DNA from: Myxococcota bacterium
GTDB lineage: Bacteria > Myxococcota_A > UBA9042 > PHBI01 > JAWLBL01
DNA length: 64,000 bases
Direction: 5' to 3'
Assembly: GCA_041687695.1 (NCBI GenBank)
Contig: JAWLBL010000021.1
Location: 70,325-134,324 of the forward strand
Positions 1 through 49,404 of this stretch are shown here, one piece after another (position 1 is the first letter of the stretch; the number at the start of each line of letters is the position of its first letter). The position numbers and the translations under genes are program-made. The notes beneath the pieces were generated by a model. The model was not told where the DNA came from and did not search any database. It saw nothing but the letters and a program-made list of their open reading frames with translations.

Positions 1-3000
1 ACGGCAACCGCCGCATCTTCGACTGCAAGGGGCTCCTCCTCCGCATCATCGACCCCCGCTTCCACGAGCTCGAGCTCATCTGGACCGGCTCGGTCGACCC
101 CCTGACGCGCACGCGTCGCTTGACGGCCATCATCGACGCCGCGGGCCAGACGACCGCGCTCTCGTGGATCGCGACGTCCGCGGGCGAGCGCATCGCCGGC
201 ATCACGGACCCCTACGGGCGCCAGGTGCGCTACGGGTACGCGGGCGGCGGCGAGCGCCTCGCCTCCGTGACGCTCCTCGCCGGGCCGAAGGGCGCGATCA
301 CGCAGACGCGCAGCTATCGCTACGACGACAGCGGCCGCCTCTCGGCGGTCATCGAAGCCGACGCGACGACCACGGCGCCGACGATGGTGGTCGAGTACGA
401 CTCCGACGGGAAGGTCGTCCGGCAGCGGCTCGGCCGCGACGCGGGCGACGAGGGTGCGGCCACGGGCGCCTACGCCGACGGCCGCGACGGGGCCACCTGG
501 GAGCTCGCCGACACGGAGGACGGGGTCGAGGTCGTCGCGCCCGACGGGGCCGTCCGTGCCTATGTGCTCGAGGCCCTGCCGGATGACGGCCCCAGGGTCA
601 TCGCGTCGGTGACCGTGACGCGTCCGGTGGCCGACGCCGCGACCCTCTCCGGGACCACCAAGCCCGCGCGGGTCGAGAGCGCGCTCGAGACGCGCTACGA
701 GCACGACGCCAACGGCCTCGTCACCGCCATGGAGACGCCGTCGGGGCGCCGGACGGAGATGTCCTGGGACACCCACGGCCACATGGTCGAGCGCCGCGTG
801 TTCCCGATGGGCGGCGGCGCGCCCGAGACGACCGGGTGGACGTACGAGGAGACGAGCGGCGCGCCCCACGCGAGCTTCCACTGCTGGGCGATGACCCAGG
901 AGGTCGATGCCGGCGGCGCCAAGACCACCCAGGGCTACTGGCCCTTCGATCCGGCCCAGCCCGGGCGCCGCTGCGAGACGGCGACGCGCACCCTGCCGCC
1001 GTCCAAGACCATCGACGGCGGGGTCGCGACCTTCGGCGAGCAGTACGACCACGTGGCGGACGGGCGCCTCCGCGGGCTCCTCGCCGAGCGGCGCGTCCAG
1101 GCCGGCGCGACGGTCGTCTCGCGCGTCCAGCGCCTCTGGGAGACGCCCGTCCCTGGCCCCGGCGACGCGGCCGGGGCCAGGAGCGGCAAGCTCCCCGTCG
1201 CCAAGCTCGGCCACCCCTCGGGCGTCACGACCTCCGGCGACCTCCCGGCCGCCGACTCCGGGCTCTGCGAGGGCGCGCTCCCGAGCGAGATCACGACCGA
1301 GATGACCACCGACGACCGCGGCAACGTCGTCGAGGTCCGGGACAGGCGCCTGGTCGCCTGCGACTTCCACTGGGAGTGCGAGGACGGCGCCTGCACGGAC
1401 GGGCAATGCGTCGCGACCATCACCACGGTCTCGACCTTCGATGCCAAGGACCGGCTCATCCGCGAGGTGACGGACCCGGACGGCATCCCCCAGACCGTCG
1501 ACTACACCTACGACGCGCGGGACCGCGTGGTCGCGACGCGGGCCAACATCGACGACGCGTTCAGCTCCTCGGCCGCCTCGCTGGGGTGCTCGGGGTGCTT
1601 CAACGGCGCCGCAGCGGTCACCGAGGCCGTGTACGACCGCATGGGCCGGATCTCGGCCGTCGTCCGCCGCGGCGACGACCAGGACGTCTTCGTGCTGACC
1701 GCCCACGACGGCCTCGGCCGACCGCGCTATCGCCTCTCGCCCGGCGCCGGCGCCGACGCGGCCGCCGTGAGCGCCCTCGTGAACAGCGCGACGTCGGGGA
1801 GCCCCGTCCACGAGCTCCTCGCCGCCCACGACGTCCCCTCGCTCGGCGACGCCAACTTCGAGACCGTGACGCCGGGCGACGACCTCCTGCTCAACCCGAG
1901 ATGGGTCCTCCGGACGCTCACCCACGACGCCGACGGGCACCTCCTGACGGTCGCCGCGACCGACGGCGCGGCCGCCTCGGACTGCGCGCCCTGTGACGCC
2001 TCGCATCACCAGCGGATCGAGCACTACTACGACGTCGACGGGCTCCTCGTCGCGACCGACGAGGGGCGCACCGACCGCGTCGGCCCGGACGGCGGGCGCG
2101 TCGTGGAGCACCTGACCTATGACGCCTCGCAGCGGCTCGTGAAGCGCCGCGTGCTCGACCCCGTCGGCCCGCCGGGGTGCCAGCCGGGTGTCGCCGTCCA
2201 GGAGGTCGCCTTCTCCGACCTCACCGCGCGCGGCTTCCCGCAGCGCATCGAGGTCCGCGGCCACTCGGCCGACGTGACGCTCGATCCGGCCACGGGGGCG
2301 GTGACCGAGGGACCCTGTGACACCGGGCGCCTCCTCGCGCTCGAGACCCGCGAGTACGACGCCCTCGGCCAGACCGTCGCCCAGACCGAGGCGCAGCTCG
2401 ACGGCTTCGGGCCCGAGGCCGACCCCACCGGCGCCCCGACCCGCACCCTCAGGATGGCCTTCGACCACGCCGGTCGCATGGTCGAGAGCTTCATCGAGGG
2501 GCCGGGCGGCGCGCGCCTCGAGCACGAGCGGCGCGTCTTCAGCTACCTCGGCTCGCCCTGCTGGGAGGGGCTGTTCTCGGAAGAGGGCGCGGCGCCGGGG
2601 GTCATCCGATCCACCCGCTTCTTCTATGATCTCGCCGGCCACCTCGCGCGCCGCGAGGAGCACCACCTCCCCGAGGCCGGCCACCAGGCCGTGGCCGTCG
2701 AGACCGGGCTCCGCTTCGATCGCCTCGGCCGCTTGCGCGACACGGTCGACGCGCTCGGTCGCGTCACCAGCCGGATGGTCTACGACACGCTCGGTCGCGT
2801 CCGTGGCTCACGCGACCTCCGCGGCACCTGGCGCGAGCTGCGCTACGACGCCCTCGGCAACACGATCCTGCACAAGGCGCACGCGAGCACGCCGCGGTCG
2901 ACGACGACCACCTGGCGCGGCGCCTACAAGCGGGCCGAGGCCGACGTCGTCGCTGGCCAGAACCGCGCCCTCCGTACGTTCTCGTATGCGCTCTCGGCCG

Positions 3001-6000
3001 ATGTCGTCCGCTCTCGCCCGGGCCCGGCCGACCTCGGCCTCGAGGCGGAGACGCTGCGCAACGAGGCGGGCCAGCCCTGGCGCGAGCGGACCCTCCGCGG
3101 CGCCATCGTCGAGAGCACCGTCGACGCGCTCGGCCACACGGTCGCCATCGTCGCGACGTCGCCCGAGGCCGGGGCGGCGACCCTCCCGAGCGGAGAGCCG
3201 CTCGTCACGACCGCCCGCCGGGAGCTCCGCTACAACGCGCTCTCTCAGCTGCGCCTCGCGCGGAGCTTCGCGGGGGACGACGCGCCCATCGCCACCATCT
3301 GGAGAGGCCACGACGCCCACGACAACCTCCGCTTCGAGGCGCAGTACCGGCACCCCGCGGCGGGAGGCCCGGCCGCTTACGCGCGCGTCGACGCCACCTG
3401 GGACGTGCGCGGGCTCCTCGGCACGCTGACGCAGGACGTCCCGGGCGGCGACCCGGTCGTGCTCACATACGCCCACGACGACGCCGGGCGCCTCCTCGGC
3501 CTCACGAGCGCCGCGGGCGCCAAGGGCATCTTCCGGGACAACCACCTCTCCGAGGTGGCCTACACCTACACGGGCGCGCTCCCCGTCGAGCGCGTCGTCA
3601 CCACGACCTCGACCTATCTCGCCGGCGCGACCACCAGCATCCGCTATCGCTACGACTACGACGAGCTCGGCCAGCGCTACCGCACGGAGATGCTGACCGG
3701 CGACGAGAAGCGGCTCTTCGAGGAGCGCCGCTACTGGCACGGGCCCGACGTCGTCCTGACGCGCGCCGCCTGGTTCAGGGACGGCGAAGAGCAGGGCGAC
3801 CTCGGCGCGGTGATGGACAACCTGGCCATGCAGGGCAAGAGCCACCTCGTCAGCAAGCCCTCGTTCAGCCTCTTCGCGCCCCTGTGGACCTACGACCAGT
3901 ACTTCGCCGACAACCCCGTCGACACCGTCTACACGGCCTCGATGTTCGACGACATGGGGCTCGCGACGCGCACCTTCACCACCATCTACCCGGCCTGGTC
4001 GGGCAAGCCCACGCTGCGCTCGACCTGGCGGACCTACGACGGCGATCGCCTGAAGTCCGAGCAAGCCATCGGCTGGGACCCCATCGACGGCAAGCCGACC
4101 GACGTCACGCACTATGCGCTGTCGTGGGACGGCGAGGGTTTCGCGAAGCCGGGCCTCGACCGCATCCGCCTCGCGACCCACCTCGTGGACAAGTCGGTCA
4201 CGCTCGCCTCGCTGCCTGGCTCGCAGCTCGATGTCGACCTCGGCGCAGGCACCATCGCCGGGGCCGCCGCGGACCGCACCGACACCTATCGCTTCGAGTA
4301 CACGGGGGGCCTCCTGCCGCTCCACGACGGCTGCGTCGGCGCGTCGTGCGATGGCCCCGACGCCGCGCCTCGTCACCGTTACCACTACGACGCGTTCGAC
4401 CAGCTCGTCGCGGTCGGCGCGCGCGAGCCCGACGCATGCCAGGCCCCGGGCCCCCTCGACAACGAGGTCTACCCCGTCGCCTCCGACTACCGCGTCGCCT
4501 GGGACGCCCTCGGCCGCCGCGCCTACGAGCGCTACTCGCTGCCCGCCGGCTGCGCGAGCGCCGCCTCGCAGCTGCAGGGCGAGGTCCCCCGCGGGTTCGT
4601 CTACTTCGACGACCAGCTCGTCGAGGAGCGCTTCGACGTCACCTGGGACACGACGCCCGGGACGGCGCTGTACGTCCATGGCGCCGACGACCTCGCCTTC
4701 AGCGCCATCATGTTCAAGCCGGGCGACCAGGCCCCCCACCAGGCGCACTACCACCCGATGGAGGACAGCGCGGGCATGCTGCTCGGCGTCCGCGACGACA
4801 ACAGCGGTCTCTTCCGAAAGCCCGGAGCCCCGGCGGGGGAGACCGAGATCCTGGAGACCAAGGACCGCGCCTGGTTCCGGAACTACCCGATGGTGCGCAT
4901 CAACCCGGCCGTCAGCTGGCCGCTCCGCCGCATGAGCGACAGCATGGAGACCATCGGCTTCGGCAAGCTCAGCTACGGGCCCGAGCTGGGCTACATCGCC
5001 GATCTCCGATCGAACCCGGAGGCCGACCGACACTTCGCGACCCAGCCGCTCGGCTTCTGGGGCTCGGTCGAGGCGGTCGGCTCATTCATCGTCGGCGCCC
5101 TCATCGCGCCCTTCTTCGACGCCGTCGAGCTGGTCCGGTCCGCCGCCGATCTCATCCGCGGCATCGGCGATGGCGCCTCGTGGAGCTCGCTCCAGCGGCG
5201 CGGCCAACGCTTCGGCAACATCGCCGGACAGATGGCGATGGACGTCGCGATCAGCGCCCTCACGGCGGGGATAGGCGGTGGGGCCGTGCGGGCCGTGCGC
5301 GCCGGCGCCAAGCGGGCGTCCAAGGCGGGGCGCGCGGTGCGGCGCGGGATGCTCGACCGGCAGGCGGTCAGGGATCCCGACGGGTTCCTCCGCAACATGG
5401 GCCTCACCCGGCGCGAGGTCATGGCTTTCCAGATGGCCAACGACGCGCTCGGCGGCGGGTTCGAGATCGCCATCCGCAGCTTCGGCAAGAAGGCCAAGAT
5501 GCGCCGCACCCACGTCGAGAACGGCGTCCTCGCCAAGCCGCTATGGCAAAAGGGCAAGACCTCCTCGAAGGACGCCCTCGTCGCCTGGAGCGACGGTCGC
5601 AAGATCAAGGCGACGGGCGACGTCGACCTCGCCTACGTGCTCAAGGACGGCAAGCCGGTCGGCCGGGACGCGGCCGAGTTCCGCAAGGCGTTCCGGGCGG
5701 CCTATCGGCGCCTCGATGGCCCGAACAACCCCACCATCAAGCACGGGCCGCACCTCGACCTCTCGCTCGTCCGCCCGGGCGAGCCCACGTTCAAGCGCGG
5801 GAGCGGGCTCGTCGAGCTCAAGCTCGATCCCACGAGCAGCCGCTATGACCCCACCGTGGCGCTCGACCCCGAGAAGGTCTTCCAGAGCGACAAGCAGATC
5901 AACGAGCTGCTCGGCCTCATCGGTCCGCCCGGACAGACCTTCTACCTGAGGTTCGACGCGAACGGCGTCCTCACCGCGGGTCAGCACTCGCTGACGGACG

Positions 6001-6086
6001 CGCGCTCGCTCCTCAGGCGCTTCGCGCCGGCGCGCGGCTGGCCGAAGTCGTGGTTCCGAACCACGACCAAAAAGTTCGACGAGTGA
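1..6086 (+). CDS. Rhs/YD-repeat family polymorphic toxin, 5'-truncated by the window edge; C-terminal ~400 aa variable (toxin-like) domain of unknown type
   Basis: The reading frame is open from base 3 (NRRIFDCKGLL...) with no stop upstream of the ATG at 120. Dozens of YD/Rhs repeats are present (RYRYDDSGRL, YTYDARDRV, YDALGN, RYRYDYDELGQRY). The divergent C-terminal tail follows the repeat core. Confidence 0.9.
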   Translation, partial: GNRRIFDCKGLLLRIIDPRFHELELIWTGSVDPLTRTRRLTAIIDAAGQTTALSWIATSAGERIAGITDPYGRQVRYGYAGGGERLASVTLLAGPKGAITQTRSYRYDDSGRLSAVIEADATTTAPTMVVEYDSDGKVVRQRLGRDAGDEGAATGAYADGRDGATWELADTEDGVEVVAPDGAVRAYVLEALPDDGPRVIASVTVTRPVADAATLSGTTKPARVESALETRYEHDANGLVTAMETPSGRRTEMSWDTHGHMVERRVFPMGGGAPETTGWTYEETSGAPHASFHCWAMTQEVDAGGAKTTQGYWPFDPAQPGRRCETATRTLPPSKTIDGGVATFGEQYDHVADGRLRGLLAERRVQAGATVVSRVQRLWETPVPGPGDAAGARSGKLPVAKLGHPSGVTTSGDLPAADSGLCEGALPSEITTEMTTDDRGNVVEVRDRRLVACDFHWECEDGACTDGQCVATITTVSTFDAKDRLIREVTDPDGIPQTVDYTYDARDRVVATRANIDDAFSSSAASLGCSGCFNGAAAVTEAVYDRMGRISAVVRRGDDQDVFVLTAHDGLGRPRYRLSPGAGADAAAVSALVNSATSGSPVHELLAAHDVPSLGDANFETVTPGDDLLLNPRWVLRTLTHDADGHLLTVAATDGAAASDCAPCDASHHQRIEHYYDVDGLLVATDEGRTDRVGPDGGRVVEHLTYDASQRLVKRRVLDPVGPPGCQPGVAVQEVAFSDLTARGFPQRIEVRGHSADVTLDPATGAVTEGPCDTGRLLALETREYDALGQTVAQTEAQLDGFGPEADPTGAPTRTLRMAFDHAGRMVESFIEGPGGARLEHERRVFSYLGSPCWEGLFSEEGAAPGVIRSTRFFYDLAGHLARREEHHLPEAGHQAVAVETGLRFDRLGRLRDTVDALGRVTSRMVYDTLGRVRGSRDLRGTWRELRYDALGNTILHKAHASTPRSTTTTWRGAYKRAEADVVAGQNRALRTFSYALSADVVRSRPGPADLGLEAETLRNEAGQPWRERTLRGAIVESTVDALGHTVAIVATSPEAGAATLPSGEPLVTTARRELRYNALSQLRLARSFAGDDAPIATIWRGHDAHDNLRFEAQYRHPAAGGPAAYARVDATWDVRGLLGTLTQDVPGGDPVVLTYAHDDAGRLLGLTSAAGAKGIFRDNHLSEVAYTYTGALPVERVVTTTSTYLAGATTSIRYRYDYDELGQRYRTEMLTGDEKRLFEERRYWHGPDVVLTRAAWFRDGEEQGDLGAVMDNLAMQGKSHLVSKPSFSLFAPLWTYDQYFADNPVDTVYTASMFDDMGLATRTFTTIYPAWSGKPTLRSTWRTYDGDRLKSEQAIGWDPIDGKPTDVTHYALSWDGEGFAKPGLDRIRLATHLVDKSVTLASLPGSQLDVDLGAGTIAGAAADRTDTYRFEYTGGLLPLHDGCVGASCDGPDAAPRHRYHYDAFDQLVAVGAREPDACQAPGPLDNEVYPVASDYRVAWDALGRRAYERYSLPAGCASAASQLQGEVPRGFVYFDDQLVEERFDVTWDTTPGTALYVHGADDLAFSAIMFKPGDQAPHQAHYHPMEDSAGMLLGVRDDNSGLFRKPGAPAGETEILETKDRAWFRNYPMVRINPAVSWPLRRMSDSMETIGFGKLSYGPELGYIADLRSNPEADRHFATQPLGFWGSVEAVGSFIVGALIAPFFDAVELVRSAADLIRGIGDGASWSSLQRRGQRFGNIAGQMAMDVAISALTAGIGGGAVRAVRAGAKRASKAGRAVRRGMLDRQAVRDPDGFLRNMGLTRREVMAFQMANDALGGGFEIAIRSFGKKAKMRRTHVENGVLAKPLWQKGKTSSKDALVAWSDGRKIKATGDVDLAYVLKDGKPVGRDAAEFRKAFRAAYRRLDGPNNPTIKHGPHLDLSLVRPGEPTFKRGSGLVELKLDPTSSRYDPTVALDPEKVFQSDKQINELLGLIGPPGQTFYLRFDANGVLTAGQHSLTDARSLLRRFAPARGWPKSWFRTTTKKFDE

Positions 6087-6306
6087 GCAGGCGGGGCGGC
6101 GCCTCCAGGACGGCGCCGCTCAGACCCGGCCGTGGTCGTCGCAGTGGTCGCCTTGCGCGCCGGAAGACCTCGCCAGCTCGCACCCCGTCGTGCACCGCTC
6201 GACCGTCGCCGTCCGGTGCGGGCAGGCGTCGTGGGAACGGCACGACAAAGGGATCACCTTTGTCTCGGCCCCTCCTCTAGCGCGGGCGCGTTCACCAAGT
6301 TCAGGC

Positions 6307-6873
6307 ATGACAGACGGCCTCCGTTCGAGCTGGCTGCTGCTCGGCCTGGCGGTCGCCGGTCTGGCCGGCGGCGCGGCGCTGTGGCTCGCCGGCGCGCCCG
6401 GGGCGGCCGACGCGCTGTGGCTGGGCGCGACGGCGGTGGCGTTCGTGCCGCTGGTCGTGCGGGTCACGCGCAGCGTCCTGAGGGGCGAGGCGGGGGTCGA
6501 CCTCATCGCCGTGCTGGTCTGGCCGGCGCGATGCTGCTGGGCGAGTACCTGGCCGGCGCCGTCATCGGGCTGATGCTGGCCAGCGGCCGGCTGCTCGAGC
6601 GGCGCGCCAGCGCGCGGGCCACGCCTCGGGCGACCGGCTCGACAGCGGCACGGTCAACGTCGGCCGCGCGTTCCGGATGCGCGCGACGGCGTCGGCCGCC
6701 GAGAGCACCTACGCCGGCGTCGTCCGGCTGGTCGCGTCGGCCCAGCGCGACAAGGCGCCGGTCGCCCGGCTGGCCGACCGCTACGCTGCGCTGTTCATCC
6801 CGTTCACGCTGGCGGTCGCCGCGGCGGCCTGGGCGCTGTCGGGCGACCCGGTGCGCGCCCTCGCCGCGCTGCG
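6307..6873 (+). pseudogene. Decayed partial duplicate of the 5' region (promoter + N-terminal ~1/3) of the P-type ATPase gene at 12907
   Basis: Near-identical to 12873-13690, including the 35 bp upstream of the ATG (ctctagcgcgggcgcgttcaccaagttcaggcatg). It carries a 1-nt deletion (~6525) and a ~220-bp internal deletion (junction ~6625), so the frame is destroyed. Similarity ends ~6875. Confidence 0.85.
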
Positions 6874-7028
6874 AGCCCGTCCGGCCGAGGTGGTGCAACG
6901 AGTGAAGGTGCGCGCGCGCACCTCGGGACCGCGCGCGCGCAGCGGTGGCGGGTGCGGCGACCGCGCCGCGGCGCCCCGGCGCCCTGGCATGGAACTGGCT
7001 ACTCGACCCGGTCACCGAGGAGGGAGCC

Positions 7029-10000
7029 ATGCAGCGCCAGGAGCACCGAAGCAGTCCAGAGGGAGCGCGCAGCGCGGAGGAGAGGTCGCCGCAGCGCGAG
7101 GCCGGGGACGGCGTGCGGGGGCAGCTGCGGGAGCTGCCGTCCTACGCGGCGCAGCGGGCGGCGCTGGTCCCCGGCGGGCCCATCCACCTGTCGCGGCGCC
7201 CGGGCGGCGCGGACGGCGGGCGGTCGCCAGCGGAGGCCTTCGGCCAGGCGACCAGCGGGCCGGCGCGCGAGCTGCCGCACCGCGGGGCGATGGAGCAGGC
7301 CTTCGGGCGTGACCTCGGCGGAGTGCGGGCCTTCGTCGGCGACCCGCAGGCCAGGGCCGGGCTGTCGGCGCTGGGCGCGTCGGGGGCGGCGTCGGGCGGT
7401 GACGTCGCCTTCGCCGACCCCAGCCCGTCCAGGGAGCTGGTCGCCCACGAGGTGACGCACGTCCTGCAGGGCGGCGGCGGCGTGCAGGCGAAGTCCGAGG
7501 TGGCGCCCGCGGGCGACGCCGCCGAGGTCGAGGCCGACCAGGTCGCCGCGCGGGTGGCCGCGGGGCAGCCGGCGGGCCCCATCGGGGCCGCCGGCGGCGG
7601 GCTGCGGCTGAAGAGGGCCCACCGGACGACGCTGGACGGCGGGAAGGTGCGGGCCGACGACGAGGACAAGACGCCGCTGCAGGTGGGCGAGCGCGATCCG
7701 GCGGACCCGAACGTCAGCGTCTCGACGAACGACCTCGGCGACGGGCGGGTGGTGGTCGGGACCGAGAAGAAGAGCGACGCGACCTTCGGGACCGCCTCGA
7801 CCCGCAGCGTGACGACCGACGACAAGGTGGAGGACCCCGTCGCGACGGGGAAGGCCCTGCTGGCCGAGATGAGGTCGGCCACCAAGGACATCGACGAGCA
7901 CCGGCTGCCCGAGCTCGAGGCGCGGAGAGAGCGGCTCGAGGCGGCGAAGGCGACGCCTGAGGGCTCGGCCGAGGCCAACGGGCCGCGGTTCGACGTGGAC
8001 GCCGAGCTGGCGGCGGTCGAGGAGGAGCGAAAGCGCCTCGTGGCCAAGAAGGAGCGCCTGGCGGCGCGCACGGAGGAGCTCGGCGAGCGCCTCGGCGACG
8101 AGGCGGCGGCGAAGGGTCTCACCGTCGAGGAGCTGAAGGCGATCTCGGCCGAGGTCGGCGGGACGAGCGTCGAGGTGGCCTACCGCAGCGAGGGGTCGCA
8201 GACCTTCGAGGAGGGCAGCGGCTTCGCGGTCGAGCACGACGGCGTGCGCATCGAGGGCGGGTCGCTGGTCTCGAAGACCGACGCCGACGGCAACCAGTCG
8301 GGCGAGGGCAAGCGCTACTCGGGCAAGATCGGGGTCAAGGACGGCAGGGTCGGCGGCGAGCTCGAGCAGAAGGCGGCCGACGGCTCGTCGGTCAAGGGCT
8401 CGTTCCACGCCAACGAGGACGGGGCGGCCGCCGAGGGGACCTGGGCGAAGGCCGACGGCCGCTCGACGACCGTGGGTGCGACGGTGGACAAGGACGGCGG
8501 GTCGGCGAGCTACGCCTCCAAGGGCGCCGATGGGGTGAGCCACGAGCTGGGGGCGCACCACAAGAAGGGCAAGGACGGCGCCGAGGACGAGTGGGGCCTG
8601 ACGGCGGGCCTCGGCAAGGCCGACACCGACGCCGACAAGAAGGCCGCGAAGGACAAGGACAACGTCGACGGCAACCTCGAGGCGACGCTGTCGACGACGC
8701 GCGTCGGCGGCAAGGGCGACCTCACGCTGCCGCGGTGGGGCGACGACGCGCGCAGCTTCACGTTCAGCTGCGGCGGCAGCGTCTACATCGACTGCACGGT
8801 GACGGTCTCTGCCAAGGGACCGCCGCCGAAGTACACGCTGGTGGCCAGGGCGCACGGCAGCATCTCGCCGGGCGGCACGCTCAACGGCGAAGAGGGCGGC
8901 GCCGGGGCGAGCGCGACGGCCAAGGTGACGCTGGCGCTCGACAAGACCATCACGCGGGTCTACGACGGCCCGAAGCTCGAGGCGCAGCTCGCGTGCTACC
9001 GCGAGCTCGAGCTGGCGCCGCCGAGCACGCTCGAGAAGTGGCGGCGGGGGCTGGGGCTGCTGGCGGACGAGGGGGCGCTCACGGAGGTGGGCGACAAGGA
9101 CGAGTCGGGCTCGTCGGCGGGCGTCGAGCTGGGCGCCTCGGGCGACGCCAAGCTGGGCGGCGTCGGGGTCGGGGCCAAGGCGAGCTACGAGGGGCAGCGC
9201 AGCGTCCGGCTGACCGAGGAGAAGATCGGGGCCGACAAGAACCGGATCACGGCGCACATCGCGACGGCGCAGGAGGTCTCGGGCGGGGCCTCGGCGTCCG
9301 TGGTGACGGGCGGCGAGGTCACCTACGAGTACGAGTGGGATGAGGCCGAGACGGTCGAGTTCGAGCTGTCGACCAGGGACCCGAAGACCTACGGGGCGAC
9401 CCTGCAGCGCATCCGCGAGGCGACCACGCGCGAGGAGCTCGACGCGCTGGCGATGGCGCTGGGGAGCACGGGCTGGACCTCGGCCGAGGGGCACAGCGAG
9501 ACCGTCGGCGGCAAGGGCACGTTCGAGCAGGACCTCGGGGGCGGGCAGAAGGTCGGGCTCGACGTCGGTGGCAGCAGCACGGACGCGTTCAAGAGCGAGA
9601 TCAGCCTGAAGGACGGCAAGATCGGCGCGAAGGGGTCGGGCACGCAGACGGACGAGCTCGCCGTGTCGTCGGCCGCCGGGACCGAGATGCTGGGGGTCGA
9701 GAACGTCCACGGCGGCGCGGCGAGCAGCGACGGGAGCGAGGCCTCGCTGGAGCTGTCGAGCAAGACCACCGAGAAGACGCCGGGCCTGGGCAGCGGCAAG
9801 AGCCTGGTCGGCGAGGTGATGGCCAGGTCGTCGATCATCGAAGGCGTCCGGTCCTACCTGACCAAGGAGGAGACGACGCTCTCGGGCACCGGCTACAGGT
9901 CGGCGGATGTCTGGCGCCTCGTCGGCTACGCCAGCCAGAAGGGCGTCTGGAGCGGCGCGGTCGGCGTGGCGCTCCCCGGCCCGCCCGCGCAGAAGGCCTG

Positions 10001-11063
10001 GGAGCAGCTCGGTCGCACGCTGCGGAGCCCCGCCCGGAGCCCCGAGGCCGACCGCCTGCACGCCCGCATCGCGGCCGACCCGCAGCTCGACAACAAGACC
10101 AAGGAGCGCCTCGTCGAGGAGCTGGACCTCGCGTTGTCGATGCGCGCGCTGAACCTCTTCCTCAGCCAGGCCGGCAACGACGGCCAGAGCCTCATCCGCG
10201 CGGTCCTCGAGCGGGCCGGCCAGGGCACCCACCGCGGCGGCGTGAAGAAGGCCGCCGGCTCGAGCTGGTACTGGCCGCCCGAGCTGAAGGAGCTCCAGGG
10301 GCGCTGGACGAAGAGCCAGGCCGAGGTCGCCGGGCTCGAGGGCCAGGCGATGAAGCTGCTCGAGCAGGGCCTCGACGGGCGCGACGAGGGGCTGGCGCTC
10401 ATCACCGGCGCCACGAGCCGCCTCGACGGCGTCCTGCGCGACTTCGAGGCCGCGCGGGGCGAGCACTACGTCGACCACCCGCGCGAGTTCGTCGACATGA
10501 AGACGAAGATGGAGGCGAGCCAGCGGCAGGCGCGGAAGGTGCGCGCCGCCTTCGACCAGGCCGCGGTGGAGGTCGAGGACCGCTCGGTCGAGCCGGGCGA
10601 CGGCCCGCCTGCGGTCTGTGAGGCCACGGCGGAACCCGGGCCCGACTGCAGCGAGGAGCGCGCGGCCGCGCACGCAGAGGACCGCGAGCGCGTGGAGACG
10701 GCGCAGCGCCTCGAGCGGGCGCGCAAGATTCAGCAGATGAGCGCCTACTGCCGGGGCTTCAAGCTGCAGGAGACCAAGCTCCTCGGCGAAGCGCGCGACG
10801 CCTTCTTCCAAAGCGACGCGACGCGCATCCTGACGACCTCGCTCGCGCAGGGCTACGACGAATGGATCGGCCACCTGCTCGCTTATCGCGACGCCTACCG
10901 CGACGCCCAGTGGCCGGTCGAGACCTGGAAGATCAGCGCCGACGCCAAGAGCCGCCGCAACCTCTTCTACGAGCCCGACGTCGACGCCTTCGAGAAGGTC
11001 TGGCGCGACGCCCTCGGCAGCGAGCCGCCGTCGACCCTCGTCTGGCGCCTCCGGTCGTACTGA
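7029..11063 (+). CDS. Large (1344 aa) DUF4157-domain protein; Gly/Ser-rich and coiled-coil C-terminal regions, function unknown (putative effector/toxin)
   Basis: The N-terminus matches the DUF4157 signature (LPHRGAMEQAFGRDLGGVRAFVGD...GGDVAFADPSPSRELVAHEVTHVLQG). The ATG at 7029 is preceded by a GAGGAGGGAG Shine-Dalgarno. The ORF-track start at 6945 lies inside the upstream pseudogene and lacks an RBS. Confidence 0.7.
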   Translation: MQRQEHRSSPEGARSAEERSPQREAGDGVRGQLRELPSYAAQRAALVPGGPIHLSRRPGGADGGRSPAEAFGQATSGPARELPHRGAMEQAFGRDLGGVRAFVGDPQARAGLSALGASGAASGGDVAFADPSPSRELVAHEVTHVLQGGGGVQAKSEVAPAGDAAEVEADQVAARVAAGQPAGPIGAAGGGLRLKRAHRTTLDGGKVRADDEDKTPLQVGERDPADPNVSVSTNDLGDGRVVVGTEKKSDATFGTASTRSVTTDDKVEDPVATGKALLAEMRSATKDIDEHRLPELEARRERLEAAKATPEGSAEANGPRFDVDAELAAVEEERKRLVAKKERLAARTEELGERLGDEAAAKGLTVEELKAISAEVGGTSVEVAYRSEGSQTFEEGSGFAVEHDGVRIEGGSLVSKTDADGNQSGEGKRYSGKIGVKDGRVGGELEQKAADGSSVKGSFHANEDGAAAEGTWAKADGRSTTVGATVDKDGGSASYASKGADGVSHELGAHHKKGKDGAEDEWGLTAGLGKADTDADKKAAKDKDNVDGNLEATLSTTRVGGKGDLTLPRWGDDARSFTFSCGGSVYIDCTVTVSAKGPPPKYTLVARAHGSISPGGTLNGEEGGAGASATAKVTLALDKTITRVYDGPKLEAQLACYRELELAPPSTLEKWRRGLGLLADEGALTEVGDKDESGSSAGVELGASGDAKLGGVGVGAKASYEGQRSVRLTEEKIGADKNRITAHIATAQEVSGGASASVVTGGEVTYEYEWDEAETVEFELSTRDPKTYGATLQRIREATTREELDALAMALGSTGWTSAEGHSETVGGKGTFEQDLGGGQKVGLDVGGSSTDAFKSEISLKDGKIGAKGSGTQTDELAVSSAAGTEMLGVENVHGGAASSDGSEASLELSSKTTEKTPGLGSGKSLVGEVMARSSIIEGVRSYLTKEETTLSGTGYRSADVWRLVGYASQKGVWSGAVGVALPGPPAQKAWEQLGRTLRSPARSPEADRLHARIAADPQLDNKTKERLVEELDLALSMRALNLFLSQAGNDGQSLIRAVLERAGQGTHRGGVKKAAGSSWYWPPELKELQGRWTKSQAEVAGLEGQAMKLLEQGLDGRDEGLALITGATSRLDGVLRDFEAARGEHYVDHPREFVDMKTKMEASQRQARKVRAAFDQAAVEVEDRSVEPGDGPPAVCEATAEPGPDCSEERAAAHAEDRERVETAQRLERARKIQQMSAYCRGFKLQETKLLGEARDAFFQSDATRILTTSLAQGYDEWIGHLLAYRDAYRDAQWPVETWKISADAKSRRNLFYEPDVDAFEKVWRDALGSEPPSTLVWRLRSY

Positions 11064-11211
11064 CCGCTGCGCGCGCGCGGTCCGGCCGTGCGCGCGCGCA
11101 GCGCTTGAACCGCGCGGCCCGTGTGCCGGCGCCGCCCGGGCCCTGGCACGACTTTCGCTTTGTACCGCACCCGAGGCCGCGGGGGCCTCACGTCACTTCG
11201 GGAGAGACCTC

Positions 11212-11610
11212 ATGAGACTGTCACTTCGCCTCGCGATCATCGCCGCGGTGCTCCTCGGCTCGGCCGGCTCGGCCTTCGCCGGCGGCCGCACCCTGCGGGT
11301 CCGCATGTACAACAGCAGCACCGTCCAGAAGTCCGACTGCCGGGTCTTCCTGAAGAACCACGGCTCCAAGAAGATCCGCCTCCACGAGACCTTCACCCAC
11401 ACGGCGCCCAGCGGGACCAAGGTCTACACGACCACGATCCCGACCGGCTGGAACCTGGTCGAGGTGAGCTGCCGGGCCAACGGGCCGCGGGCGAAGGGGA
11501 CCATCGACCTGAATACCGAGTCGCTGAGCCAGCGCTTCATCCACTCGGCCTGCGCGTCGAGTCAGCCGGACACCAAGTGCTCCGTCTACAACTACCAGGG
11601 CAACCCCTGA
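11212..11610 (+). CDS. Small secreted protein (signal peptide), unknown function
   Basis: N-terminal signal peptide MRLSLRLAIIAAVLLGSAGSAFA. Protein-like composition, lower GC than the flanks, GGGAGAG RBS. Confidence 0.55.
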   Translation: MRLSLRLAIIAAVLLGSAGSAFAGGRTLRVRMYNSSTVQKSDCRVFLKNHGSKKIRLHETFTHTAPSGTKVYTTTIPTGWNLVEVSCRANGPRAKGTIDLNTESLSQRFIHSACASSQPDTKCSVYNYQGNP

Positions 11611-11636
11611 GCACGCGCCCCCGGGAGGACAGAGCC

Positions 11637-12680
11637 ATGCAACGCATCGCGCTGATGATGACGGTCGGGCTGATCGGCCTCGCCGCCGGCCCCGCCCACG
11701 CGGCCGACAAGTGCGACGAGATCGCCCTCGGCGACAAGGCCGCCTGCAAGGCCGCCTTCGACAAGGAGTGCGGGTCGATGACCCGCGACGCGGATCGCAT
11801 CGGCTGCGAGCGGCGGCTCGTCGACCGGTTCGACTCCTGCGTCAACGGCGACCTCGACAAGGCCTGCGAGGCGGCCTCCAAGGCCTACTGGGAGACCTGC
11901 CGCAAGCTGGGCACGATGGACGACGGCTGGAAGGAGCGCGTCCTGAACTACCCCGAGGCCCGCGAGGGCATGGAGCAGTTCGCCAAGACCTGGGGCGCGT
12001 GCCTCCAGCAGAGCTCGAGCTGTCAGGTCTCGGACAGCTGGATCAGCTATTGCGGCGACCCCGCGCTTCAAAAGGCCAAGAGCAAGTATGTCGAGGAGCT
12101 CGACTTCGCGCTCCGCACGCTCGAGGACAAGAAGCAGCACATCGCCAACGCCAAGGCGAGCAAGAACTTCGAGCTGGCGATGGGCCTCGTCGACGGGGCT
12201 CTGGACAAGCTGCTGGTCTTCTCCGATCTCGCGCGCTCGGTCCCCTGGGCCGACCACCGCAGGGCCGACCTGATGGCGGCCATCGCCGACCTCGAGGCCT
12301 CGCACCAGGACGCCGTCGCGCAGAACGAGGCGCTCATCGCCTCGCGCGTCTGCCCCGCGGGCGCCAACCACGACGCGGCGCGGGCGAAGGCCATCAGCCC
12401 GGCCGTCGAGGCCTTCTTCCACGACGCGGGCGACACGAAGGTGAAGGTCGAGGTCTTCCGCCTGAACGGGCCGAAGACCACCGCGCGCGACTGGCTGCGC
12501 CGAAGCAACATCGAGCACCAGCCCGCGGTGGTCTGCCTCGAGAAGGTCACCCCGCAGCGCAAGTACTGCCAGGTAGCCCGCGTGACGCTGCGCCGCACGA
12601 AGGTCGACGGGGCCGCCTGGAACCCGTGGCGGGTGGGCGTCGGCGAGGTCGACGAGCTGCTCTGCAAGAACGTCAAGTAG
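11637..12680 (+). CDS. Secreted cysteine-rich protein (signal peptide), unknown function
   Basis: ATG at 11637 after GGGAGGACAGAGCC. Signal peptide MQRIALMMTVGLIGLAAGPAHAADKC. Lys-rich protein-like composition. The upstream part of the 11121 ORF overlaps the previous gene out of frame. Confidence 0.6.
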   Translation: MQRIALMMTVGLIGLAAGPAHAADKCDEIALGDKAACKAAFDKECGSMTRDADRIGCERRLVDRFDSCVNGDLDKACEAASKAYWETCRKLGTMDDGWKERVLNYPEAREGMEQFAKTWGACLQQSSSCQVSDSWISYCGDPALQKAKSKYVEELDFALRTLEDKKQHIANAKASKNFELAMGLVDGALDKLLVFSDLARSVPWADHRRADLMAAIADLEASHQDAVAQNEALIASRVCPAGANHDAARAKAISPAVEAFFHDAGDTKVKVEVFRLNGPKTTARDWLRRSNIEHQPAVVCLEKVTPQRKYCQVARVTLRRTKVDGAAWNPWRVGVGEVDELLCKNVK

Positions 12681-12906
12681 CCCGGCGCAGGCGCTCCCAT
12701 GGCCAGGGTGCGCGCGCCCCCTGGCCAGAGGAGCCCTCGATGAAGCGCTGGGAGCTCGTGCTCGCCCTGACGCCGCGCGCGGCCTGCGCGCCGGGGAACC
12801 CCGACAAAGGCGATGTGGGGACGGCGTTGGAGGCCATGTTGGCCTTTCGCGAAGTGGAAGCGACTCGGCCCCTTCTCTAGCGCGGGCGCGTTCACCAAGT
12901 TCAGGC

Positions 12907-15282
12907 ATGACACACGGCCTCCGTTCGAGCTGGCTGCTGCTCGGCCTGGCGCTCGCCGGCCTCCTCGGCGGCGCGGCGCTGTGGCTCGCCGGCGCGCCCG
13001 GGGCGGCCGACGCGCTGTGGCTGGGCGCGACGGCCGTGGCGTTCGTGCCGCTGCTCGTGCGGGTCACGCGCGCCCTCCTCCGGCGCGAGGCGGGGGTCGA
13101 CCTCATCGCCGTGCTGGCCCTGGCCGGCGCGATGCTGCTGGGCGAGTACCTGGCCGGCGCCGTCATCGGGCTGATGCTGGCCAGCGGCCGGCTGCTCGAG
13201 CGGCGCGCCAGCGCGCGGGCCATGCGCGAGCTCACGGCGCTGCTGGCGCGGGCGCCGAGGGTCGCCCACCGCGTCGAGGGCGAGGCCGTGGTCACGGTCG
13301 ACGTGGACGCCGTCGGTCCGGGCGACCTGCTGCTGGTCAAGGAGGCCGACGTGCTCCCGGTCGACGGCCTGCTCGCCGACGAGCACGCGACCCTCGACGC
13401 GTCGGCGCTGACCGGCGAGGCGCGGCCGGTCGAGCGCGCCTCGGGCGACCGGCTCGACAGCGGCACGGTCAACGTCGGCCGCGCGTTCCGGATGCGCGCG
13501 ACGGCGTCGGCCGCCGAGAGCACCTACGCCGGCGTCGTCCGGCTGGTCGCGTCGGCCCAGCACGACAAGGCGCCGGTCGCCCGGCTGGCCGACCGCTACG
13601 CTGCGCTGTTCATCCCGTTCACGCTGGCGGTGGCCGCGGCGGCCTGGGCCCTGTCCGGCGACCCGGTGCGCGCCCTCGCCGTGCTGGTCGTGGCGACGCC
13701 CTGCCCGCTGCTGCTCGCCGTGCCCATCGCCATCGTCGCCGGGGTCTCCCGGGCCGCCCGCCGCGGCGTCATCGTCAAGGGCGGCGGGGCGCTGGAGCTG
13801 CTGGCGCGGGCCGACCGGGTGTTCCTGGACAAGACGGGGACGCTGACGTCGGGCGCGGCGAGCCTGTCGCGCGTCGCGACGACCGGCGGGTGGACCGACG
13901 AGGCGAGGCTGCTCGCGCTCGCCGGCTCGGTCGAGCAGGTCTCGTCCCACGTGCTCGCCGGGGCGATCGCGCGCGCCGCGCGAGCGCGGGGCCTGGCGCT
14001 GTCCTTCCCGGCCGAGGTGCGCGAGGAGCCGGGCGCGGGCGTCGAGGGGACGGTCGACGGCCGGCGCGTGCGGGTGGGCCGCTACGACTGGGTGACGCGG
14101 GACGCCGAGGCCGACGACGCCGAGGCGGGCTTTCGCCGTCGGGCCACGCGCACGCTGGGGTCGGCGGTGTTCGTGGCCGTCGACGGGGCGCTCGCCGGGG
14201 CGCTGCTCCTCGAGGACCCCATCCGGCTGGAGACGCCGCGCACCCTGCGCGCCCTGCGCCGCGCCGGGGTGCGGCAGATCGACGTGCTGACGGGGGACCA
14301 CCCCGCCGTCGCCGCCTCGGTGGGCGCCGCGCTGGGCCTCGACCGGGTCCACGCGCAGCTGTCGCCCGAGGAGAAGGTGCGGACGGTGGCCGAGGCGCGG
14401 TCGGCCGGGTCCAAGGTCATGGTCGGCGACGGCATCAACGACGCGCCGGCCCTGGCGGCGGCCGACGTGGGGGTCGCCATGGGGGCGCGCGGTGCGACCG
14501 CCTCGTCCGAGGCCGCGGACGTGGTGCTGACGACCGACCGCTTCGACCGGCTGGTCGACGCGATCCTGATGGCGCAGCGGTCGCGCAGCGTGGCCTTGCA
14601 GAGCGTGGCGCTCGGCATGGGGTTGTCGGTGGTCGCGATGGGCGCGGCGGCCTTCGGGCTGCTCGCGCCCGTGGTCGGGGCGTTCCTGCAGGAGGGCATC
14701 GATCTGCTGGCCATCGGCTGGGCGCTGCGGGCCCTGGGGCCGGGCGCGGCCGAGCGGGCGCGCGACCGCAAGCGCCGGGTCCTGAGCCCCGAGGCCGCCG
14801 CGCACCTGGCCGCCGACCACGAGCACCTGGTCCCGACGCTCGAGCGCTTCCGGAACCTGGCCGACCAGCTCGACGCGCTGCCGCGGCGGCAGGTCTGCGA
14901 GGAGCTGCGGTCGTTGAACCGCTTTCTGAAGACCGATCTCCTGGCCCACGAGCGGGCCGACGAGGCCGAGGTCTACCCGGCCCTCGCCGCGCGGCTCGAG
15001 GGCGACGATCCGCTGGGGACCATGAGCCGCACGCACCAGGAGATCTTCCACCTGGCGCGGCTGCTCGATCTGCTGCTCCACGAGCTGCCCGCCGAAGGCC
15101 CCGAGCCCGAGGACCTGCCCGACCTGCGGCGGCTGCTCTATGGCCTCCACGCGGTGCTGCGCCTGCACTTCGCGCAGGAAGAGGAGCTGTACCAGAGCGT
15201 GACCGACGACGGCGGCGGCCGGCGGCGCCCCCGACGCGCCCGCGGCCCGAGCCCCCTCGGCCCGCCCGTCACCAGCCGGTGA
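12907..15282 (+). CDS. P1B-5-type heavy-metal P-type ATPase with C-terminal hemerythrin-like domain
   Basis: DKTGTLT phosphorylation motif, TGEARP actuator motif and MVGDGINDAPALAAADVGVAMG hinge. TM motif TPCPLL (PCP rather than CPC). No N-terminal HMA domain. C-terminal H..HxxxE...H..HFAQEEE hemerythrin-like signature. Confidence 0.9.
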   Translation: MTHGLRSSWLLLGLALAGLLGGAALWLAGAPGAADALWLGATAVAFVPLLVRVTRALLRREAGVDLIAVLALAGAMLLGEYLAGAVIGLMLASGRLLERRASARAMRELTALLARAPRVAHRVEGEAVVTVDVDAVGPGDLLLVKEADVLPVDGLLADEHATLDASALTGEARPVERASGDRLDSGTVNVGRAFRMRATASAAESTYAGVVRLVASAQHDKAPVARLADRYAALFIPFTLAVAAAAWALSGDPVRALAVLVVATPCPLLLAVPIAIVAGVSRAARRGVIVKGGGALELLARADRVFLDKTGTLTSGAASLSRVATTGGWTDEARLLALAGSVEQVSSHVLAGAIARAARARGLALSFPAEVREEPGAGVEGTVDGRRVRVGRYDWVTRDAEADDAEAGFRRRATRTLGSAVFVAVDGALAGALLLEDPIRLETPRTLRALRRAGVRQIDVLTGDHPAVAASVGAALGLDRVHAQLSPEEKVRTVAEARSAGSKVMVGDGINDAPALAAADVGVAMGARGATASSEAADVVLTTDRFDRLVDAILMAQRSRSVALQSVALGMGLSVVAMGAAAFGLLAPVVGAFLQEGIDLLAIGWALRALGPGAAERARDRKRRVLSPEAAAHLAADHEHLVPTLERFRNLADQLDALPRRQVCEELRSLNRFLKTDLLAHERADEAEVYPALAARLEGDDPLGTMSRTHQEIFHLARLLDLLLHELPAEGPEPEDLPDLRRLLYGLHAVLRLHFAQEEELYQSVTDDGGGRRRPRRARGPSPLGPPVTSR

Positions 15283-15361: not shown

Positions 15362-15793
15362 TCAGACCGGCAACCCGTGTTCGAGCTTCATGAGCAGCTC
15401 CTCCACCTGCTTGGTGCCCAGCTCGGTCACCGCGCGATCCACGGGGCGGGCTCCCTCGAGCCCCGGCTGCTCGCTCGCCAAGAACTCGTGCTCGAGCCCC
15501 GGATCCTCCCAGACCCGCTCGGCCAGCGCCGCGATCCGCGCCACGCGCTCGACCCGCTCGCTCTCGACGTGCGTCAGCCTTCGACGTCGCTCGAGCGTCG
15601 TTGGCGGGACGATCTCGTAGCTGAGCGCCAGGCCGTTCTGCTCGTCACCGGTGACACGCAGCGTGGCCCGTCGTAGCGCCTCGACGGGCAGCCCCTCCTC
15701 GAGCAGCTTTCCGAGCTCCCGGATCGTCCCCACCTCTCGGCCCAGCACCGCGCGACCGCCCAACACCTCAGCGACTGCCCTCACGTCGTACAT
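15362..15793 (-). CDS. Hypothetical protein (143 aa)
   Basis: Protein-like ORF convergent with the ATPase. No motif I can name with confidence. Confidence 0.45.
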   Translation of the reverse strand: MYDVRAVAEVLGGRAVLGREVGTIRELGKLLEEGLPVEALRRATLRVTGDEQNGLALSYEIVPPTTLERRRRLTHVESERVERVARIAALAERVWEDPGLEHEFLASEQPGLEGARPVDRAVTELGTKQVEELLMKLEHGLPV

Positions 15794-16639: not shown

Positions 16640-17460
16640 ACCGGTTCGGCCACGCCCGGCTCCGCACCGCCACGACACCGCCGCCTCGCCCCCTGGGACC
16701 GCCGGTTTCCAGAGGGTGTCGCAGAAGCCCAACCGGAGTGCTCCACCTTGGTGGAGCCCCCATCCGGCGCAGCTTGCTGCGCCGGGGTTGGCGGCCAGAT
16801 CCCGGCGGCAAGCCGCCGGGGCCGGGGCTCCGGCAAGCCGGAGCACTCCAAGACCGCCTCCGCCGGCATCAACACGACACCCTCTTCCAGCCGGCCTCGC
16901 GCTCGCACCAGCACGACCTCCGACTCTCGGCCCCTGGGACCGCCGATTTCCAGGGGGTGTCGCAGAAGCCCAACCGGAGTGCTCCACCTTGGTGGAGCCC
17001 CCATCCGGCGCAGCTTGCTGCGCCGGGGTTGGCGGCCAGATCCCGGCGGCAAGCCGCCGGGGCCGGGGCTCCGGCAAGCCGGAGCACTCCAAGACCGCCT
17101 CCGCCGGCATCAACACGACACCCTCTTCCAGCCGGCCTCGCGCTCGCACCAGCACGACCTCCGACTCTCGGCCCCTGGGACCGCCGATTTCCAGAGGGTG
17201 TCGCAGAACCCCAACCGGAGTGCTCCACCTTGGTGGAGCCCCCATCCGGCGCAGCTTGCTGCGCCGTGGTTGGCGGCCAGATCCCGGCGGCAAGCCGCCG
17301 GGGCCGGGGCTCCGGCAAGCCGGAGCACTCCAAGGCCGCCTCCGCCGGCATCAGTACGACACCCTCTTCCAGCCGGCCTCACGCTCGCACCAGCACGACC
17401 TCCGACTCTCGGCCCCTGGGACCGCCGGCTTCCAGCCGGCCTCGCGCTCGCACCTGCACG
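16640..17460. repeat. Tandem array (~3.4 copies) of a 241-bp unit, each unit made of four GC-rich inverted repeats with CTTG/CAAG centres
   Basis: Unit starts at 16690, 16931, 17172 and 17413. Core: GGAGTGCTCCACCTTGGTGGAGC..CCGGCGCAGCTTGCTGCGCCGG..CCCGGCGGCAAGCCGCCGGG..GCTCCGGCAAGCCGGAGCACTCC. All ORFs across it are Pro/Arg/Ala-rich in every frame. Confidence 0.9.
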
Positions 17461-18935: not shown

Positions 18936-19414
18936 GCAGCACCTCCTACCCTATGTCGCAGTCAAGCCCCCCTCGCCGCGACCCGCTCGCCTCCCCGATC
19001 CACTCCCCTCGGCCCGCGCCGGCTCGATGGCCTCGCCGTTCACAAGCCCCCCACGCCCTTCCCGGCCGGCGTCCCTCCGTACCTGCCCTCCCGCACCGCC
19101 GGAATCCCAGCCCCGCCGCCCTCCGGCCGCGCCGGTGTCAACCTTCCGGCCGCGTACGCCTTGCACCCCTCGCCACGCCCGAATACAGTCGCCCCAACGC
19201 AGTACCGGAAGGCGGCCATGCTCACGCAAGAAGCCCAAGCACTCCGCTCGCCCGAGCCCCACGGCTCCCAGCGCACCGCGGCGCCCACCGTCTTCGCACG
19301 CGGTCCGGCCCTGCCCGGCCCCGCGCATCCCCCGCGCATCCAATAGCCAACGCACCACCTGGCCGAGGCCGCAGCCGCCAACCCGCACCCACCCCGACGA
19401 CCCAGCGAGCCATC

Positions 19415-26424: not shown

Positions 26425-26584
26425 GGGCCTGGTTCAGACAGGGCCTCCGCTGGTACGAGCTCCTGCCAAACATGCCCGAGGATCGTCTGAAGAAACGCAT
26501 GAACGAGTTCGTTGCGGTCATGCGAGAGCACGAGGTATGCAGCGCCGTTCTGGGGGTGCTGTAGGAATGGGGGGATGCCTCAAG

Positions 26585-33409: not shown

Positions 33410-33504
33410 GGCGCGCGCATCGTAGGGCGACGGACTTCTCAGGCCAAGGCGACCGTGATAGATACGACCTATTCACACACGCACGGGTTTTGGGGAGGTC
33501 GGCC

Positions 33505-38157: not shown

Positions 38158-38246
38158 GCGGCCTGCTCGGGGCTTGACCGCCCCACACCCCGTGAGACCT
38201 TCCGAGGGGCCGGCCCGTCCTGGGCCGCGCTCACGAGGGACGCGAC

Positions 38247-49367: not shown

Positions 49368-49404
49368 GCGACGCTGGCCGCGTTCGCCCATCAGATCGCC
49401 CGCT

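Follow-up and report, generated by a model that had tools for sequence, protein, structure and literature searches.

The closest described counterparts of the locus reported here come from several sources. Tandem duplications are known from amplification studies in Salmonella and Escherichia coli to undergo 'remodelling' by duplication and deletion, and some integrative elements (phage 21 and e14 in icd, islands in tRNA genes) carry a replacement for the gene end that they displace, together with an integrase and a short att core. In single-crossover (Campbell-type) integration, direct copies of part of a gene flank other DNA and one of them is truncated; in E. coli, single crossovers with a circle carrying a gene fragment gave flanking duplications of 109–950 bp, and were far commoner than true homology-facilitated illegitimate recombination (HFIR) (PMC3240628). 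In toxin-module displacement, as described for Rhs, contact-dependent inhibition and type VI secretion system arrays, the anchor and the stranded fragment both belong to the toxin gene, with its conserved 5' core, orphan 3' tips and immunity genes (PMC5361080). Here we compare with these systems a locus in a 64,000-nucleotide stretch of DNA (the window; G+C ~73%) from a Myxococcota bacterium (GCA_041687695.1, contig JAWLBL010000021.1, positions 70,325 to 134,324 of the forward strand), in which a gene for a P1B-5-type heavy-metal ATPase and a degraded copy of its 5' end bracket a toxin-type cluster headed by a DUF4157 gene, beside a giant Rhs gene.

Local alignment and a repeat finder identified positions 6264–6871 (copy A) as a direct, degraded copy of positions 12864–13686 (copy B), which belong to the intact ATPase gene. 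This confirms an initial annotation, made from the sequence alone, in which the 5' end of the ATPase gene is duplicated in direct orientation around the DUF4157 cluster, with the copies placed at 6268–6873 and 12868–13690; the boundaries shift by 2–4 nt. The copies are identical at 587 of 608 positions (96.5%) over three collinear blocks: 6264–6517 against 12864–13117 (239/254, 94.1%), 6518–6621 against 13119–13222 (103/104), and 6622–6871 against 13437–13686 (245/250, 98%). Base 13118 (1 nt) and bases 13223–13436 (214 bp) have no counterpart in copy A, and both deletions had been noted, the larger at ~220 bp. Copy A thus comprises 43 bp of leader, rather than the 35 bp first given, an ATG at 6307, and ATPase codons 1–105 and 178–260; the earlier side-by-side comparison of leader and ATG (MTDGLRSSWLLLG vs MTHGLRSSWLLLG) was correct. 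The intact gene lies 6.6 kb away, and the toxin-type cluster sits between the two.

When the whole window was searched by tblastn with the ATPase as query, copy A could be read as ATPase only by switching among all three frames, and no ATPase sequence past codon 260 was found elsewhere in the 64 kb. The copy ends four codons short of the TPCP motif, the 214-bp gap takes out the TGE motif, and DKTGT is missing as well, leaving no continuous ATPase frame with the catalytic and metal-site motifs. Because it stops before TPCP and has lost TGE, copy A cannot encode a pump and, judged by these motifs, is a pseudogene fragment. The practical consequence for annotation is that an 88-aa 'gene' called at this position in a sister assembly should be treated as a pseudogene fragment, with 12907–15282 as the intact pump.

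That sister assembly provides the second instance of the locus. The 90% identity cluster of the ATPase has one other member, identical at 788 of 791 residues (99.6%), on contig JAWLHM010000028.1 of GCA_041690335.1. There we found the same gene order, the same ATPase fragment with both deletions, and no intact second paralogue. Neither copy A nor copy B differs by a single base between the genomes, the locus as a whole is ~99% identical, and the genomes differ overall by ~0.4–0.9%. Since the same arrangement and the same deletions recur in a distinct genome, the structure is no assembly artefact and is older than the split between the strains. Differences between the strains are unevenly spread: there are three in positions 1–8503 and none in 12138–13686, while divergence reaches ~1% in the 3' part of the ATPase gene, 2.5% in an Xre gene (the most diverged gene) and 5% in 18951–20221. 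The Rhs gene, copy A and the 5' part of the DUF4157 gene form a single block and, with only three differences in 8.5 kb, were inherited together. By this comparison the locus is a recombination mosaic between strains, and the pattern points to a recent recombination or sweep across the Rhs–DUF4157 block.

Three junctions define the rearrangement (6263|6264, 6871|6872 and 12863|12864). A perfect palindrome previously placed at 6243–6263 is indeed perfect, but occupies 6244–6264 and so overlaps the left end of copy A by 1 nt. It occurs once in the window (0/100 shuffles) and folds as RNA into a hairpin of -16.4 kcal/mol (z=-3.1). An operator function was considered for it and rejected, as 14 homologous ATPase genes have no such motif in common in their upstream sequences. 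To the right of position 6871 there is no convincing ATPase similarity (11/300 shuffles reach the score, and the alignment is heavily gapped). A remnant of orf46, the 46-aa open reading frame (ORF) preceding the intact ATPase gene, was sought to the left of copy A (GGGAAC..CGACAAAGG) and was not established, with p ranging from 0.008 to 0.2 by parameters and with competing alignments.

At the third junction, orf46 runs across the boundary of copy B. Its final five codons and its stop lie inside the repeat, with the TAG 17 nt into it, and this TAG is present in copy A too. The ORF has a coding-type periodicity (GC1/2/3 = 0.70/0.51/0.85) and a GAGGAG Shine-Dalgarno sequence, and it is among the genes called in the sister genome, as is the 88-aa ORF. 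At 75% GC a stop codon is expected at ~1.4% per codon (our estimate). Because a chance stop within six codons of a random joint is therefore unlikely, the adjacency of orf46 and the ATPase gene looks native and the junctions on the side of copy A look novel.

The reading that we favour, though as an even call, is that copy A is an inert rearrangement scar that most likely arose in place, by in-situ segmental duplication. The ancestral order would have been Rhs – DUF4157 cluster – orf46 – ATPase, and the ATPase leader with the first 780 bp of the gene would have been copied to a site beside the palindrome that follows the Rhs gene. Two routes can be envisaged: a tandem duplication of a ~6.8-kb unit (6872–13686, the cluster plus the ATPase 5' end) followed by deletion of the first copy of the cluster, or a templated insertion, in a single step, into a break close to the palindrome. 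Stopping four codons before the TPCP metal site, the truncated copy would never have encoded a pump, and the 1 nt and the 214 bp would have been lost later. The toxin-type cluster would not have been inserted at all; it would be bracketed only through the copied piece landing on its far side. The duplication with its boundaries, its inactivity and its occurrence in two strains are shown by the sequences, whereas the ancestral order, the mechanism and the lack of function are inferred.

Palindromes are hot spots for breakage and deletion, and the left joint (6263|6264) adjoins a perfect one. Nothing marks the cluster as foreign, because the third-position G+C (GC3) of all its genes is native-like (0.95–0.97). 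The initial annotation had offered two origins, insertion of the cassette by recombination or duplication followed by decay. The in-situ route takes one or two events and the insertion route at least three; parsimony slightly favours duplication, the second of the two. Like a remodelled tandem duplication, the locus has a partial second copy a few kb away, its end points are arbitrary, and one joint lies beside a palindrome. Unlike one, it presents no intermediate with two full units, and its divergence is uneven and rich in G<->C changes.

Several observations weigh against an origin in place, and the substitutions between the copies are the main ones. Of 21 differences, 15 fall in the first 254 bp and six in the remaining 354 bp (p=0.006). 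G<->C transversions make up 13 of the 21 (62%), compared with 25 of 91 (27%) between the strains (p=0.004). When changes were polarised by 24 homologues (61–70% identity), L16V, L57V, R60G and V259A came out as derived in copy A, and V50L, S56A and probably a change at position 20 as derived in copy B; the dead copy thus keeps the inferred ancestral V50 and S56, and the functional gene has the derived residues. Nor is copy A enriched in AT. The description of copy A as 'decayed' therefore suits its two indels but not its substitutions, which show no AT enrichment and changes on both lineages. This skew, both the clustering and the G<->C excess, is left without explanation by duplication in place. 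Divergence between two alleles, one resident and one incoming, matches it no less well, and it would also fit gene conversion that affected the 3' part afterwards, or recombination of one copy with an allele from another strain.

Microhomology at the junctions amounts to 0–1 nt and is uninformative. Two further points count on the same side. A 0.8-kb direct repeat that was still perfect would have been liable to loss through RecA, and its retention would need selection for the cluster. Moreover, the collections searched contained no genome with an empty site or the ancestral order, and no donor, which leaves the direction of the event without direct evidence. With the ATPase as query, GTDB species representatives and JGI metagenomes gave nothing above 62% identity; in a set of 5.8 billion proteins, beyond the ATPase itself and its 99.6% mate, the next relatives were at 70% and in unrelated neighbourhoods; and exact look-ups of the 88-aa ORF and of orf46 returned the sister genome only. 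The absence of an empty site or donor from databases is weak evidence.

A tenable but tentative alternative is that the cluster was inserted by homologous recombination with a circular or linear molecule carrying the cluster and an ATPase 5' fragment, through either a single (Campbell-type) crossover or HFIR. Copy A would then be the displaced 5' end of the resident gene, and copy B wholly or partly the incoming allele. As in single-crossover integration, direct copies of part of a gene flank other DNA here and one is truncated, and the repeat length of 0.8 kb is within the experimental range given above. Toxin modules are also thought to be gained through recombination at anchor homology, the favoured model of their turnover (PMC5361080). 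The 3.5% divergence between the copies, with changes on both lineages, many G<->C differences and no AT drift, resembles allelic divergence, and the mosaic structure of the locus between strains is in keeping with such exchange. In 12 of the 13 G/C differences the G is in copy A and the C in copy B, and a lean towards C-ending codons is seen in the Rhs gene and the two small cluster genes, unlike the ATPase 3' part and other genes of the window. We rejected codon usage as a donor signature, as the numbers are too small for significance.

The insertion route, however, calls for three events or more: first a rearrangement with its end point at -43, then the formation of a circle with an illegitimate joint (13686|6872), and finally the crossover. 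It also requires that common descent gave the resident upstream flank the final 17 nt of orf46 and nothing else. The GC3 of the cluster is native-like, none of the bracketed genes contains a recombinase domain (Pfam), neither donor nor empty site turned up in the collections searched, and the hint from codon usage lacks statistical significance. Unlike documented single-crossover integrations, the locus involves no known vector, replicon or circle, its bracketed DNA holds no recombinase or transfer genes, and the junction on the side of the intact gene lies inside an apparently native ORF; no empty site, donor or mark of foreign DNA was found.

Two more specific forms of gain were tried and set aside. 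Toxin-module displacement resembles the locus in that a toxin-type cluster stands beside an Rhs gene with a stranded fragment as footprint, and differs in that the duplicated gene is an unrelated metal pump, represented by its 5' end, with no pair of orphan tip and immunity gene seen. An Rhs orphan-tip array was rejected: the stranded fragment is ATPase, a BLAST search of the spacers finds no Rhs-derived repeat, and no immunity-sized ORF comes after the Rhs stop codon. Elements that supply a replacement gene end are alike in keeping their target intact by the supplied end and in leaving the displaced end across the insert. A site-specific integrative island was rejected, with no integrase, att site or tRNA (none in the 64-kb window) and a repeat of 608/823 bp instead of a short att core.

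We consider it unlikely that copy A is what is left of a second ATPase paralogue, once complete, whose 3' two-thirds were later replaced or deleted. Such an origin is compatible with copy A starting at the same leader position as copy B and keeping outgroup-like residues, and the ~8 synonymous and 9 non-synonymous codon differences between the copies suggest some past purifying selection. Against this, nothing of the ATPase beyond codon 260 is left elsewhere in the window and the flank after 6871 is unconvincing, and the sister genome has the same fragment with no intact paralogue. In effect, a lost paralogue is a slower version of duplication in place.

A quite improbable possibility is that the repeat acts as a mobility handle needing no recombinase gene of its own, with RecA looping out a 6.6-kb circle that carries the DUF4157 cluster and one repeat and that re-enters by a single crossover at the ATPase gene. 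The repeats in any case make the 6-kb toxin-type cluster deletable through homologous recombination. If the handle were real, a housekeeping-type gene would act as attachment site for the cluster in any strain with the ATPase gene. Depending on whether the crossover fell to the left or to the right of the 1-nt deletion, the result would be an intact hybrid pump or an inactivated one, and gain and loss of the toxin cluster would be coupled to the status of the metal pump.

Very unlikely, in our view, is that copy A has been retained for a function, be it as a promoter or leader of the cluster, as an 88-aa two-helix membrane peptide, or as a homology arm for loop-out and re-integration. Its start codon and 70 codons are open, the sister assembly has a gene call there, and copy A shows no differences between the strains. 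With 254 bp at 94% identity and 354 bp at 98%, the direct repeats are adequate RecA substrates. The absence of strain differences is uninformative, however, as the whole 8.5-kb block is near-identical between the strains, and the frameshifts and the 214-bp deletion resemble neutral loss.

A role as promoter fares no better. The promoter had been reported as duplicated together with the ATPase 5' end, which we could not uphold: only 43 bp upstream of the ATG are shared, and they contain no detectable sigma70-type promoter and no RNA element. A consensus scan found no sigma70-type promoter anywhere in 5900–13100, and Rfam returned no family at the gathering threshold and no leader element. The ATPase gene starts 26 bp after the orf46 stop, which leaves little room for a promoter, so its promoter is probably further upstream, outside the repeat. 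The DUF4157 gene had been suggested to be transcribed from the duplicated leader, starting 155 bp past the end of similarity; the distance is 157 bp (ATG at 7029). Such transcription is neither needed nor supported by what lies between, because a -28 kcal/mol hairpin intervenes and the DUF4157 gene has a candidate sigma54-like box of its own.

The weakest alternative, an assembly artefact through a strain-variant bubble or a chimeric metagenome join, can draw on both genomes being probably metagenome-assembled and on repeats being classic misassembly sites, but is exceedingly unlikely given an identical structure in two assemblies ~1% different, copies that differ by indels and 21 substitutions, and joints on the side of copy A that are not at repeated sequence, unlike repeat-induced misjoins.

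On this evidence the locus adds one more case to a familiar class of rearrangement scar, left by either partial gene duplication or single-crossover integration; it does not represent a novel type of element, and no long-standing question is opened by it. As a natural case it is clean: a duplicated gene fragment brackets a cluster of polymorphic-toxin type, in a high-GC lineage that has been little sampled. With population data, it could reveal how clusters of this sort come, go or become fixed when they have no mobility genes of their own.

Table 1. Features of the ATPase–DUF4157 locus, in window coordinates
Feature	Position	Strand	Evidence or value
Giant Rhs/YD-repeat gene, 3' part	1..6086	+	Pfam RHS_repeat E=2.5e-16
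Perfect 8-5-8 palindrome GACAAAGGgatcaCCTTTGTC at left end of copy A	6244..6264		unique in window
Copy A: truncated, frame-shifted ATPase leader + codons 1–105 and 178–260	6264..6871	+	alignment, tblastn
88-aa ORF: 70 ATPase N-terminal residues + 18 out of frame	6307..6573	+	translation; gene call in sister assembly
(GC)5 hairpin between copy A and DUF4157 gene	6910..6940		-28.4 kcal/mol
Candidate sigma54-like -24/-12 box TGGCATGGAACTGGCT, 29 bp upstream of DUF4157 ATG	6985..7000	+	pattern scan
DUF4157/eCIS_core protein, 1344 aa	7029..11063	+	Pfam PF13699 E=2.3e-11
(GC)n hairpin, 6 bp past DUF4157 stop	11069..11099		-34.4 kcal/mol, z=-3.0
Candidate sigma54-like box TGGCACGACTTTCGCT, 53 bp upstream of 132-aa gene	11144..11159	+	1 mismatch; better of two
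132-aa protein, signal-peptide-like N-terminus (…SAFA|GG)	11212..11610	+	translation
347-aa Cys-rich protein, signal-peptide-like N-terminus (…AHA|AD)	11637..12680	+	translation
Strong hairpin after 347-aa gene	12693..12734		-33.2 kcal/mol, z=-4.2, 0/200 shuffles
orf46: intact 46-aa ORF spanning B-side junction	12740..12880	+	GC periodicity; gene call in sister genome
Copy B: intact counterpart (leader + codons 1–260 of functional ATPase)	12864..13686	+	alignment
Heavy-metal ATPase, 791 aa, C-terminal hemerythrin domain	12907..15282	+	Pfam, TIGR01525, motifs
214-bp segment missing from copy A (codons 106–177, incl. actuator TGE at 169)	13223..13436	+	alignment

The identities first assigned to the genes of the locus were borne out by Pfam (Rhs; eCIS_core/DUF4157; E1-E2 ATPase with HAD and Hemerythrin). 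The intact ATPase combines the domains PF00122 and PF00702 with a TIGR01525 match of 504.6 bits (cut-off 346), and has the P-type core in full (E1-E2, HAD, DKTGT, TGE, GDGxND). Its motifs are TGE169, TPCP264, DKTGT308, GDGIND507, QX4GX3SX3M at 565 (QSVALGMGLSVVAM) and QEGID595. The transmembrane signature of the P1B-5 group is TPCP / QX4GX3SX3M / PX5QEX2DX5N (PMC3573892, Table 1), and the third of these motifs is partial here: only QEGID595 is present, its proline stands six rather than five residues before QE, and the N is missing. Residues 632–762 form a hemerythrin domain (PF01814, 45.4 bits against a cut-off of 25.3), and Pfam gave no HMA match in the protein. A hemerythrin-like C-terminal domain is known in some P1B-5 members (PMC9388753). 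With TPCP, QX4GX3SX3M, the partial third motif and the hemerythrin domain, 'P1B-5-type' is a fair label, as read from the motifs. Directly downstream of the ATPase gene, at 15362–15793 on the minus strand, lies an Xre/MbcA/ParS-type antitoxin gene with no obvious partner toxin ORF beside it.

The bracketed DNA contains the DUF4157 gene and the two small genes that had been listed as its exact contents, and orf46 (12740–12880) and three strong hairpins lie inside as well. In the DUF4157 protein, the domain is N-terminal (44 bits against a cut-off of 22) with HEVTH (HExxH) at residue 140. Homologues match only this N-terminal domain of ~100 aa, and the C-terminal 1200 aa are orphan, with no recognisable toxin domain and no homologue by Pfam, NCBIfam or protein search; the protein has no signal peptide. 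DUF4157 is a marker of polymorphic toxins and of toxins associated with extracellular contractile injection systems (eCIS), in which it typically occupies the N terminus, has HExxH, and precedes a long linker and an effector domain at the C terminus (PMC8213781). Among the large ORFs scanned in the 64-kb window there was no sheath, tube or baseplate family, and so the neighbourhood is not that of an eCIS operon. The 132-aa protein has a weak match, below cut-off, to SpaA_4 (prealbumin-like), and the 347-aa protein has none in Pfam or NCBIfam.

The window holds in total two DUF4157 clusters and one Rhs gene. The second giant DUF4157/eCIS_core protein (1624 aa) is encoded within 33283–39275 (gene 33283–38157), and a 359-aa ORF of no known family follows it. 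The two DUF4157 proteins share only the 126-aa DUF4157 region (48% identity), a polymorphic-toxin architecture.

The Rhs gene encodes 3432 aa by the gene call in the sister genome. Its C-terminal tip of ~350 aa belongs to no recognisable family, with no match in PDB or NCBIfam and only one far below threshold to SitA5, and no immunity-sized ORF follows its stop codon (6087–6243). Its codon use (CTC:CTG 126:33, GTC:GTG 108:33) is the reverse of that in most genes of the window (e.g. 9:90, 8:51), which suggests that the Rhs gene is of different origin.

The two GC hairpins form an inverted pair with 38-nt arms (6909–6946 and 11063–11100), 92% complementary, with a direct match of 78%. They are the only two such hairpins in the 64 kb, and together they bracket the DUF4157 gene. 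From their sequence and placement they could be terminators, members of a REP-like family, or the ends of a smaller unit consisting of DUF4157 alone. In the strong hairpin after the 347-aa gene, the 3' arm carries and sequesters the GAGGAG Shine-Dalgarno sequence of orf46; a sub-threshold match to terC-RNA (19 bits vs 39.9) lies near it, at 12693–12739 on the opposite strand.

The sigma54-like pattern is not enriched across the window (7 matches vs 6.97 expected), and only the positions of the two candidate sites are suggestive. The 15-nt core of the box at 11144–11159 is invariant between the strains within a 148-bp spacer that has five differences. With one box ahead of the DUF4157 gene and another, its core strain-invariant, ahead of the 132-aa gene, the cluster plausibly has its own promoters.

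The window contains other repeats at a distance from the ATPase duplication. A 241-bp tandem repeat (3.1 copies, 97% identity) occupies 16685–17435, downstream of a cupin gene, and a related copy (86–92% identity) occurs ~32 kb away at 49394–49650; this repeat overlaps long ORFs of doubtful coding value. At 26583–26990 there is a 203-bp tandem duplication (2 copies, 98%) in an AT-richer stretch without an ORF of high third-position GC. Arrays of 108–111-bp repeats (74–79% identity) and of 21/41/144/165-bp C-rich repeats, at 46583–47060 and 51768–52235, may encode repetitive Cys/Pro-rich proteins. Three short arrays with a period of 54–55 bp lie at 56182–56310, 61606–61744 and 63286–63409, and a core shared by two of them, GACGTTACCGCGGAAACGTGAC, may mark a dispersed intergenic repeat family.

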